IMG/VR virus record: IMGVR_UViG_2534681673_000009
Length of the DNA stretch: 49,610 nt
From: a virus
Taxonomy: Duplodnaviria > Heunggongvirae > Uroviricota > Caudoviricetes
Strand: one strand, 5' to 3'
Shown in pieces: positions 42,001 to 45,000 of this stretch. The position numbers were made by a program. Within the stretch, counting starts at the first letter, position 1, and each line of letters begins with the position of its first letter.

Positions 42001-45000
42001 AGATGAACGAAGGCTGGTACCAGATACGTATTGCCGGTGAGGATACCGCGCCGGAGGCGGTGTATGCCCGTCTTCATGAACCGCTGAGCGGGAGGGCCGT
42101 GATTCATATTGTACCGAGGCTGGCAGGGGCCGGGGGAAATGGTGTTTTTCAGGTGGTGCTGGGGGTTGCAGCGATTGTCGGGTCATTTTTCACTGGTGGT
42201 GCAACACTGGCGGCATGGGGCGCAGCCCTGAGTGCCGGAGGGCTGACTGCCACCACGATGCTGTTCTCACTGGGTGCCAGCATGATACTGGGTGGTGTGG
42301 CCCAGATGCTGGCCCCGAAGGCAAAGACGCCGGAGTACAAAAGCACGGATAACGGCAGACAGAACACGTATTTTTCGTCACTGGACAACATGATTGCTCA
42401 GGGGAATCCGATGCCGGTGCCTTACGGTGAAATGCTGGTTGGTTCACGACGGATATCCCAGGACATCAGCACCCGTGATGAGGGCGGTGACGGGAAAGTG
42501 GTGGTTATCGGGCGGGGATGAAAATAAAAAAATCCCGCAGTGTTCGGCGCCTGCGGGAAGAGATACGAAGATTAACTTTAAGGAATTTTTCATTATTCTG
42601 GCAGATGAACTGTAACGCAGCGTGATTATGAGCACTACAGTCAGTGTGCGGAAATGTGAATAAACTCAGAATTTTTATTCACGGGAAGGGAGGGGCCGGA
42701 TATCGGTGGCAGAGGACAGAAGGCATCATGCCGGGTTCAGGGGATAAAAAAATCCCGCAGTACTCCGTGCTGCGGGAAGAGAACGATGTTGACTAACCTG
42801 TTGGCGTTTTATTTTTATTGACCCGAAGAAACTGTAACCTGCCGGAATGCACTCTGCCACGGAGAATGACTGAAAATGTGAAGAAAATCAGAGTTTTTAT
42901 TTATCCCGTACATTCGTCTCTGGCGACAGAGTGGCGTCAGTAATGTCCGTGATACTGAGGGGGGAATTAAAAAATCTCCCGTAATACACCTGGATATTGA
43001 CGGGAGAAACGAATAGTCACCTTAAGGAGTAGTTTTGATTATTGCCTGTAATCAGCGGGCGAATTGTAACGTATGGTGATTATGAGTGCCACAGGTAATT
43101 TGCAGAAATGTGAATAAATTCAGAATTTTTATTCACAGGAAGGGGCTGCGGGATATCGGTGGCAGAGGACAGAAAATATCAGGCCGGGTTTAAGGGATAA
43201 AAAAATCCCGCAGAGTCAGCGGAGCTGCGGGAGAGAACGATGAAGATTAACGTTATGGAGTTATTTTTCAGGCATCAAAAAAGTAACGCAGCGTCATTAT
43301 TGCGGCTACAGGCAATTTGCAGAAATGTGAAGAATTTCAGAAATTTTATTCCGTCATGACACAGGCACCCTCCGGGGTGCCTGTTGTTTTGGGCATAAAC
43401 AGATTCAGACATCAGACAGGAGAGGGGGACAGAGTGGGTAAAGGGGGCGGCAAGGGGCACACACCGCGTGAGGCGAAGGACAATCTCAAATCCACGCAGA
43501 TGATGAGCGTGATTGATGCCATCGGTGAGGGACCGGTGGAAGGTCCGGTGAAGGGACTGCAGAGTATTCTGGTGAACAAAACCCCGCTGACGGACACGGA
43601 CGGTAATCCCGTGATACACGGTGTGACCGCCGTCTGGCGTGCCGGGGAGCAGGAGCAGACACCGCCGGAAGGCTTTGAGTCCTCCGGGGCAGAAACCGCA
43701 CTGGGCGTGGAGGTGACGAAGGCAAAGCCGGTGACGCGCACCATCATGTCAGCGAACATTGACCGTCTGCGGGTCACCTTCGGGGTGCAGTCACTGGTGG
43801 AGACCACCTCAAAGGGTGACCGTAATCCCTCTTCTGTCCGGCTGCTGATTCAGCTTGAGCGTAACGGTAACTGGGTGACGGAGAAGGATGTCACCATTAA
43901 CGGCAAGACCACCTCGCAGTACCTGACGTCGGTGATTCTGAATAATCTCCCTGAGCGCCCCTTTAACATCCGGATGGCCAGGGTGACGGCGGACAGTACC
44001 ACGGACCAGCTGCAGAACAGAACGCTGTGGTCGTCATACACCGAAATCATCGATGTGAAACAGTGCTACCCGAACACGGCCATTGTGGGGCTGCAGGTGG
44101 ATGCGGAGCAGTTCGGTGGCCAGCAGATGGTGGTGAACTACCATATCCGCGGCCGCATCATTCAGGTGCCGTCAAACTATGACCCGGAAAAACGCACCTA
44201 CAGCGGTATCTGGGACGGGAGTCTGAAACCGGCATACAGCAATAACCCGGCCTGGTGCCTGTGGGACATGCTGACCCACCCGCGCTACGGCATGGGAAAA
44301 CGCCTGGGGGCGGCGGATGTGGACAAGTGGGCGCTGTATGCCATCGGGCAGTACTGCGACCAGACGGTCCCGGATGGTTTCGGGGGCACAGAGCCGCGGA
44401 TGACCTTTAATGCGTACCTGTCACAGCAGCGTAAGGTGTGGGATGTCCTGGGGGATTTCTGCTCGGCGATGCGCTGTATGCCGGTATGGAACGGCCAGAC
44501 GCTGACGTTCGTTCAGGACCGTCCGTCGGATGTGGTGTGGCCGTACACCAACAGCGATGTGGTGGTGGATGATAACGGCGTGGGGTTCCGCTACAGCTTC
44601 AGTGCCCTGAAGGACCGGCACACGGCGGTGGAGGTGAATTACACCGACCCGCAGAACGGCTGGCAGACTTCCACGGAACTGGTGGAAGACCCGGACGCCA
44701 TCCTGCGCTACGGGCGCAATCTGCTGAAGGTGGATGCGTTCGGCTGTACCAGCCGCGGTCAGGCTCACCGTGCCGGACTGTGGGTGATAAAGACCGAACT
44801 GCTGGAAACGCAGACGGTGGATTTCACGCTCGGGTCTCAGGGGCTGCGGCACACACCCGGTGACATCATTGAAATCTGTGATAACGACTATGCCGGGACC
44901 CTGACCGGTGGACGCATCCTGTCCATCGATGCCGCCAGCCGTACACTGACGCTGGACCGTGAGGTGACACAGCCGGAGACAGGTACATCGACGGTGAACC

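Follow-up and report, generated by a model that had tools for sequence, protein, structure and literature searches.

Tail genes I and J of phage lambda are separated by 60 bp, and the question taken up here is what fills the far larger gap found at the same place in a Shiga toxin (Stx)-converting lambdoid prophage, IMG/VR record IMGVR_UViG_2534681673_000009, the whole 49.6-kb stretch of which (the window) was analyzed. The I-J intergenic gap of this prophage runs from 42522 to 43433 and measures 912 bp, the disparity that an earlier note, made from the sequence alone, had put at about 60 bp against about 0.9 kb; that note offered paralogous antisense small RNAs (sRNAs) or repeated protein-binding sites as candidate functions. 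The former proposal is supported by homology to the validated sRNAs PasB and EcOnc22-24, encoded in the same gap of other prophages. It is likely that the gap consists of four tandem, independently terminated regulatory sRNA genes of the PasB/EcOnc22-24 family, lying opposite to the late tail operon, and their sequence predicts Hfq-bound, trans-acting RNAs. Prophage sRNAs rewire virulence and core gene regulation in pathogenic E. coli. The sRNA family is already described and one copy per gap is normal; the array is the unusual part, and the tandem four-gene array, together with related two- and three-gene arrays, is an undescribed architecture for this family.

Four tandem units and their family

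Four diverged direct copies, with start-to-start distances of 220, 222 and 231 bp, are found in the gap by a repeat search (family D6), and longer repeated blocks recur at spacings of 217-232 and 453-454 bp; the latter spacing indicates that units 1 and 2 resemble units 3 and 4. Pairwise identity between the units is 62-71%, and because the copies are only this much alike Tandem Repeats Finder called no array in the I-J gap. An nhmmer profile built from 52 unique units of single-unit loci elsewhere, with the window and all arrays left out, gives exactly four matches in the window, all on the minus strand and all far beyond chance (E-values in Table 1), and the profile search finds no copy in the window outside the I-J gap. 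The four diverged tandem repeats of ~225 bp described in the earlier note are thus borne out by the repeat search and by the four profile matches.

Each cassette occupies ~170 bp and is followed by a spacer of 50-65 bp. Its most upstream element is a 28-bp box (consensus AATAAAAnyTCTGAnnnTnTTCACATTT) that is intact in all four units, is 86-96% identical between pairs of them, and stands at a fixed distance of 24 bp from a -10-like hexamer in all variants. The transcribed region of ~90-105 nt opens with a conserved leader, GCGUUAC, and a U-run, and continues into an A/U-rich body of ~60 nt made up of an A-rich stretch, a CU-rich core and an adjoining hypervariable stretch. The cores are anti-Shine-Dalgarno-like (ACUCCUUAA, AUUCCUUAA, ACGCCAACA and ACUCCAUAA), and the body of unit 2 is the most diverged of the four, with ACGCCAACAGG versus ACUCCUUAA in the others. 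In all four units a U-rich tract, UUAAUCUUCAU, lies just 5' of a GC-rich terminator hairpin with a U6-7 tail; a U-rich tract, hairpin and poly-U tail together form the Hfq-binding module of Hfq-dependent sRNAs (Otaka 2011 and Ishikawa 2012, as cited in PMC4104026). Mean pairwise identity among the four units is 89% in the box and 88% in the terminator 3' arm plus U-run, falling to 52% in the body and 43% in the loop.

Folding of all four units yields the 3' terminator hairpin and U-run, the body being for the most part open. In 25 diverse members of the family the terminator helix is the only consensus structure: it is 98.9% paired and three of its seven pairs show compensatory changes, values that were reached by 0-1 of 500 shuffles on four of five measures and, for further pair types, the fifth measure, by 46 of 500, while slid controls were 30-60% paired. 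Terminator hairpins, then, occur and covary throughout the family, the comparison across homologues that the earlier note had called for. Its minus-strand intrinsic terminators are found in all four units, with a different, equivalent hairpin in unit 3, and its minus-strand CATAAT elements and perfect palindrome (GTGAATAAA-N9-TTTATTCAC) are located in units 1 and 3 (Table 1).

The units are related to sRNAs that have been characterized in two pathotypes; for PasB and EcOnc22 an RNA of ~83-85 nt, bound and stabilized by Hfq, is on record in lysogens. PasB is an 83-nt RNA encoded on the minus strand of prophage PP6 of enteropathogenic E. coli (EPEC) E2348/69 (NC_011601.1, 1466343..1466261; Pearl Mizrahi et al. 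2021, PMC8550237 table S6). It is Northern-validated, its stability is Hfq-dependent, its 37 interactions detected by RIL-seq (ligation of interacting RNAs followed by sequencing) involve core and accessory mRNAs including those of type III secretion system and bfp genes, and its counts under the 'non-activating' culture condition exceed those under the 'activating' one (PMC8550237). In RefSeq the locus lies in the gap between a tail assembly protein (end 1466255) and gpJ (start 1466496), antisense to both; I-J position, orientation and architecture are those of the window units, which differ from PasB in being diverged alleles. The PasB probe AATCCCGCAGTGATCGCGGAGCT corresponds to the terminator hairpin, and window 43204-43226 agrees with it at all but 4 of 23 positions.

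EcOnc22, EcOnc23 and EcOnc24 of enterohemorrhagic E. coli (EHEC) O157:H7 Sakai are homologous Hfq peaks, obtained by cross-linking and analysis of cDNA (CRAC), in prophages Sp15, Sp14 and Sp11; EcOnc22 gives a Northern band of ~85 nt, recorded as 'Destabilised' in Δhfq (Tree et al. 2014, PMC4104026 Table S2). In NC_002695.2 all three lie in 240-bp I-J gaps, antisense to I and J, and share with the window the box, the -10 region and the terminator; the Sakai prophages differ in having one copy per gap, whereas the window's EcOnc22-type copy is the J-proximal one of four in 912 bp. The published EcOnc coordinates (PMC4104026) are 133-143 nt below those of NC_002695.2 and at face value point to the wrong part of the gap. 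With the offset calibrated on AsxR and AgvB1, the corrected CRAC peak (2902847-2902917) falls inside the predicted Sakai RNA (2902833-2902926). The EcOnc22/23/24 Northern probe, printed as GGGAGAGAACGATGAAGATTAAC..., matches window 43229-43251 exactly over its first 23 nt, the complement of which matches Sakai 2902874-2902896; the rest of the probe text differs from the window, possibly as a result of PDF conversion.

When the four units are aligned with the PasB locus and the VT1-Sakai I-J gap, homology extends over the box, -10 region, leader, body and terminator. Unit 4 and the Sp15 copy are 96% identical from box to terminator, and BLAST with PasB matches unit 4 at 80% and unit 1 at 73% over the full 83 nt (E 4e-7); unit 3 is placed in the family by its profile match, synteny and shared box. 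All four units are homologous to the PasB/EcOnc22-24 family and occupy the same position. It thus appears, from position and alignment, that the separately named PasB of EPEC and EcOnc22-24 of EHEC make up one family whose genomic address is fixed. This link is unstated in the sources consulted, i.e. table S6 of PMC8550237 gives EHEC homologues for PasA and PasD and none for PasB, and the word 'EcOnc' is absent from a 2026 preprint on the Pas sRNAs (doi 10.64898/2026.05.13.724894). The Rfam search suggested by the earlier note came back empty: in Rfam 15 no relevant family matches the units at E<=1 within 41500-44500, and the sole match in the window at gathering score is STnc100. Since there is no Rfam model the family is invisible to standard pipelines, and the array is unannotated in RefSeq genomes.

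Distribution, array types and origin

A scan of IMG/VR for the box gave at least 120 loci; units were counted as nhmmer matches spanning at least 150 profile positions, in a search that also covered six reference loci (L001-L006) and the window. Among the matches listed, five loci carry four units (L043, L086, L091, L092 and L122), L039 has an array of the four-unit type that breaks off at the contig end, two carry three (L034 and L085), four carry two (L008, L020, L046 and L059), and the remainder, about 110, carry one. Gap length in the loci listed follows unit number: 240-290 bp with one unit, ~420 bp with two, ~710 bp with three and 910-930 bp with four. In 124 of the 124 loci listed the units, in antisense orientation, adjoin the gpI end, the gpJ start or both. 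The repeats are conserved in related prophages, where the earlier note would have taken their absence as refuting; both neighbors are identified in 110 of these loci, and 14 show one, mostly with a contig end there. About 120 IMG/VR loci contain at least 63 distinct variants of the RNA region, a family far more diverse than identity-based surveys detect.

The I-J region is matched to some extent in 1,710 genomes out of a set of 5,426 complete E. coli genomes, and at least 80% of it is covered in 79. Internal units 2 and 3 are matched in 84 genomes, near full length in 67 of them and in 2-3 copies in some, with no feature annotated beneath. The array of four, or its internal part at the least, is carried by roughly 1.2-1.5% of complete E. 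coli genomes; RM10466, 2011C-3911 and O91 RM7190 are examples of strains that have it. In a collection of 50,697 phages no record of the array was found, and Stx phages there have one unit.

The recent survey of Pas sRNAs (Zhu, Shabalina & Storz 2026, doi 10.64898/2026.05.13.724894) used blastn at word size 28, places pasB copies at least 28 kb apart, reports no tandem copies, and concludes for PasA and PasD against tandem duplication as the source of multiple copies; at this same setting a PasB query has no match in the window. The occurrence of 2-4 diverged tandem copies in some Stx prophages is contrary to this current view of non-tandem Pas sRNA copies.

Four-unit arrays have the order I - win1 - win2 - win3 - EcOnc22-type - J, three-unit arrays the order I - (U072 or EcOnc22-like) - U001-like - class B - J, and two-unit arrays the order I - (U072 or EcOnc22-like) - class B - J. 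The array types are related, and a junction spacer is common to three- and four-unit arrays (BLAST to L034 and L085). The J-proximal class-B unit of the two-unit arrays has its -10 destroyed (GGAGGAAACCTT) with box and terminator kept, which suggests that cassettes can decay in place. Among the loci listed the nearest single-copy alleles elsewhere are 80, 78, 77 and 97% identical to window units 1 to 4. The units are thus closer to single-copy alleles (77-97%) than to their neighbors, and the array has the look of old alleles stacked together, not of a recent local duplication. Derivation of the spacers from the 3' end of gene I was considered and rejected, as nucleotide similarity was not above that of shuffles and BLAST matched only other arrays; in one frame spacers 42680-42745 and 43134-43198 end in ...RIS..(8-10 aa)..GF(R/K)G*, which bears a faint and unconvincing likeness to the gpI C-terminus ...RRISQDIS...VIGRG*.

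A gpI protein search of species-representative genomes returned just four loci. Near-identical E. coli lambdoid gpI and I-J DNA is present on short contigs labelled Streptomyces flavalbus, Parendozoicomonas haliclonae and a Clostridiales metagenome-assembled genome (L004, L005 and L006), occurrences that are most likely E. coli phage contamination; as three of the four loci are probable contamination, the gpI search is silent on taxonomic range.

Tandem sRNA families of comparable layout occur elsewhere, among them LhrC1-4 of Listeria, whose CU-rich motifs act against Shine-Dalgarno regions and resemble the CUCCUU core of the units. OmrA/OmrB and PrrF1/PrrF2 are likewise tandemly duplicated (doi 10.64898/2026.05.13.724894). 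In all three, and as proposed for the array, head-to-tail paralogues each come with a promoter and a terminator of their own, a scaffold that is conserved and pairing regions that differ in part; they differ in being unrelated in sequence and chromosomal core genes, whereas the array is phage-borne, antisense in a late operon and apparently assembled from old diverged alleles. AgvB and AsxR (Tree et al. 2014) are like the units in being prophage-encoded and conserved in lambdoid position, with a conserved 3' scaffold and a variable pairing region, bind Hfq as the units are predicted to do, and differ in their moron site downstream of PR', their length of 51-60 nt and their unrelated sequences. 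As the identity of the units AgvB/AsxR and PasA/C/D were rejected, since these are located at the PR' moron/lysis region and not between I and J.

Function of the cassettes and competing explanations

In lysogens the units would be transcribed from their own promoters, and the RNAs would bind Hfq and base-pair in trans with mRNAs. Since the bodies differ while the scaffold is kept, the array could supply up to four different seeds, and hence different target specificities, from one locus. A conserved host factor bound at the box would co-regulate the cassettes, and the array would have grown as alleles that had already diverged were stacked by recombination between phages, whether unequal or illegitimate.

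Of the earlier note's second candidate, repeated protein-binding sites, the part that stands is the box: it is not the primary reading of the array, and the box, the best conserved segment (89% against 52% for the body), probably serves the sRNA promoters as an operator or activator site. A resemblance to a CRP site (TcTGA-N6-TCACA) was considered and is not claimed; the CRP-like center would fall near -44.5 from the -10-inferred start, which is no canonical activating position. The box of units 1 and 3 was also likened to an ARG box (TGAATAAAAATTCT), again without a claim being made, and by eye sigma-54, sigma-E and LexA sites do not fit. The -10-like hexamers are good in units 1, 3 and 4.

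Several observations weigh against four working, trans-acting genes. A sigma-70 consensus scan called none of the four unit promoters, as no unit has a recognizable -35; its one match, at 43092-43063, is out of register with the family -10 and was rejected. Unit 2 has lost the hexamer kept by its single-copy relatives (GTGCAT versus TATCAT), so that its promoter is doubtful and it may be silent. With starts placed from the -10, the RNAs exceed the published lengths of 83 and ~85 nt by 10-18 nt, so that the true 5' end may lie further downstream or the RNAs may be processed at the 5' end, and BLAST with PasB finds only the 3' half of unit 2 and nothing for unit 3. When duplex energies of the four RNA bodies were scanned against 109 translation-initiation regions of the window, the best matches were within the range of shuffled sRNAs.

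The degenerate hexamer of unit 2 has its counterpart in the destroyed -10 of the class-B unit of two-unit arrays, and together they lend some credit to a partly decayed array, in which the J-proximal EcOnc22-type unit, perhaps with units 1 and 3, works and the others are drifting leftovers of recombination. Four-unit arrays are moreover 98.8-99.7% identical across genomes, so that their conservation would reflect recent descent and not selection. Every unit, unit 2 included, nevertheless keeps the box, the terminator stem and the U-run, the CATAAT hexamers of units 1 and 3 are good, and each unit type has single-copy relatives with the same features; partial decay is accordingly a possibility to be entertained, at less than even chances. 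A mainly cis-acting role is rather unlikely, although the position of the units would suit it: antisense to the late operon and between I and J at all loci listed, they encode RNAs that, by sequence, match the I-J spacer of the late transcript with full complementarity, and convergent promoters or antisense RNAs could strike the late I-J mRNA by transcriptional interference or RNase III cleavage, tuning J expression or silencing leaky tail-gene transcription in lysogens, with four copies raising the dose. But the predicted sRNAs stay clear of coding sequence and ribosome-binding site in both I and J, the promoter box of unit 4 stops more than 80 nt short of the J start, chimeras of PasB with many unlinked mRNAs are seen in RIL-seq (PMC8550237), and diversified bodies are unneeded for action in cis. 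A cis role could coexist with trans action.

That the four boxes titrate or recruit a host regulator at the DNA level, the RNAs being by-products, is improbable: the box is the best conserved segment of every unit and in units 1 and 3 extends into a perfect 9-N9-9 palindrome, yet its fixed distance from the -10-like hexamer in all variants is that expected of a promoter element, the covarying terminator and U-tail downstream are also constrained, and in two pathotypes the RNAs (PasB and EcOnc22) are found in abundance and bound by Hfq. Small proteins encoded on the plus strand (MKINV.ELF...), possibly paired with the antisense RNA in the manner of a type I toxin-antitoxin system, are very improbable indeed. 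An open reading frame (ORF) beginning MKINV(K/M)ELF, with an ATG and with GGAG 6 nt upstream, is antisense to the sRNA body in unit 4 (43240-43359) and in EcOnc22-, PasB- and U001-type units; among at least 152 unit instances, however, its start is ATG in 74 and ACG/ACA in 51, the block is absent in 27, its length varies from 15 to 54 aa, the peptides are basic and not hydrophobic, and window units 1, 2 and 3 are without it. With an ORF in about half of the variants, basic and variable in length, no conserved small hydrophobic toxin is in evidence and the toxin-antitoxin reading was rejected; no conserved ORF was found across the units on either strand, in agreement with the remark of the earlier note that small ORFs are not conserved between them. 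Nor is there any real prospect that these hairpin-bearing intergenic repeats are a generic extragenic element of the repetitive extragenic palindrome/bacterial interspersed mosaic element type without phage linkage, for they lie in I-J gaps at every locus listed, have no other copies in the window, were met in no non-phage chromosomal context among the matches listed, and in the listed E. coli genome matches the features annotated beneath are always the tail assembly protein and gpJ.

On the reading preferred here, of four regulatory sRNA genes acting in trans, a further proposal may be made tentatively, and with more doubt than belief: the I-J gap of Stx-type lambdoid phages may be a stacking site where diverged alleles of one sRNA gene, unlike in pairing region and alike in promoter box and Hfq module, accumulate into 2-4-gene arrays by inter-phage recombination, one host signal at the box deploying several seeds. 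A prophage would in that event gain a regulon of several sRNAs, under common control and open to combinatorial expansion, that acts on host and virulence genes. The array offers a natural experiment on seed diversification, and the conserved box a handle for finding the regulator.

Features of the locus and of the prophage

Features of the array and its flanks are collected in Table 1. The TGA stop of gene I is at 42519-42521, with 4 nt between it and the U-run in the terminator of unit 1, and upstream of I are gene K (JAB + NlpC/P60) and gene L.

Table 1. Coordinates in the window of the I-J array, its units and the flanking genes
Feature	Position	Strand	Basis or remark
Tail assembly gene I, upstream flank	41841..42521	+	ORF list; Pfam Lambda_tail_I PF06805, E 1.1e-14
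Whole I-J array, four tandem PasB/EcOnc22-family sRNA gene cassettes (likely), antisense to late tail operon	42522..43433	-	Repeats, alignment, profile
Unit 1 predicted sRNA, ~93 nt	42526..42618	-	Start inferred from -10; fold; profile E 2.1e-40
Unit 1 terminator CCCGCAG-N10-CTGCGGGA-U7	42557->42526	-	Fold
Unit 1 -10-like hexamer CATAAT	42630->42625	-	Aligned with TATAAT of PasB locus
Unit 1 upstream box AATAAAAATTCTGAGTTTATTCACATTT	42679->42652	-	Overlaps perfect palindrome 42656-42682
Junction spacer, units 1/2	42680..42745		89% identical to 3/4 junction (family D3); also in three-unit arrays
Unit 2 predicted sRNA, ~95 nt	42746..42840	-	Start inferred from -10; fold; profile E 5.1e-26
Unit 2 terminator CCCGCAG-N9-CTGCGGGA-U7	42776->42746	-	Fold
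Unit 2 hexamer at -10 position, GTGCAT, degenerate	42852->42847	-	Single-copy relatives: TATCAT
Unit 2 upstream box AATAAAAACTCTGATTTTCTTCACATTT	42901->42874	-	
Junction spacer, units 2/3	42902..42968		No match beyond four-unit arrays (BLAST)
Unit 3 predicted sRNA, ~104 nt	42969..43072	-	Start inferred from -10; profile E 1.1e-22; nearest single-copy relative 77% identical
Unit 3 class-B terminator CTCCCGTCAATA-N8-TATTACGGGAG-U6 (CTCCCGT..ACGGGAG)	43006->42969	-	Differs from other three, equivalent
Unit 3 -10-like hexamer CATAAT	43084->43079	-	
Unit 3 upstream box	43133->43106	-	Overlaps perfect palindrome 43110-43136
Junction spacer, units 3/4	43134..43198		89% identical to 1/2 junction; recurs in three-unit arrays
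Unit 4 (J-proximal, EcOnc22/23/24 type) predicted sRNA, ~91 nt	43199..43289	-	Start inferred from -10; profile E 8.6e-66
Unit 4 terminator (CCCGCAG..CTGCGGGA+U7)	43231->43199	-	Fold
Unit 4 -10-like hexamer AATAAT	43301->43296	-	
Unit 4 upstream box AATAAAATTTCTGAAATTCTTCACATTT	43350->43323	-	
Terminator-like hairpin ACAGGCACC-CTCCGG-GGTGCCTGT, then TGTTTTGGGC (also given as TGTTTTGG)	43361..43394	+	40 nt before J start
Tail tip/host-specificity gene J, downstream flank	43434..47120	+	GTG start 43434; FNIII-A_GpJ, Phage-tail_3 domains

Elsewhere in the window are an ORF of the ribosome-inactivating-protein family, Stx A-like, at 17952-18905 (+), the sRNA STnc100 (Rfam RF02076, 194 bits) at 19266-19479 (+), a NanS-p-like sialate esterase gene (DUF1737 + SASA) at 19691-21652 (+), and a lambda-type integrase at 1419-2486 (-).

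The plus-strand hairpin ahead of J occurs at the J-proximal end only and lies outside the repeated cassette. It is kept at that end in nearly all I-J gaps among the loci listed, and among its variants is a compensatory change, ACC/GGT<->ATC/GAT, seen in at least 33 loci, with intermediates that pair only as plus-strand RNA (G.U) in at least 14 loci and only as minus-strand RNA in at least 2. The 60-bp gap of lambda (L132, 165-190) has an analogous hairpin, ACCGCC-TGCG-GGCGGT, followed by TTTTGT. Given this J-proximal position and the analogue in lambda, the sRNA cassettes look as if they had been inserted between the I stop and an ancestral hairpin of the late mRNA.

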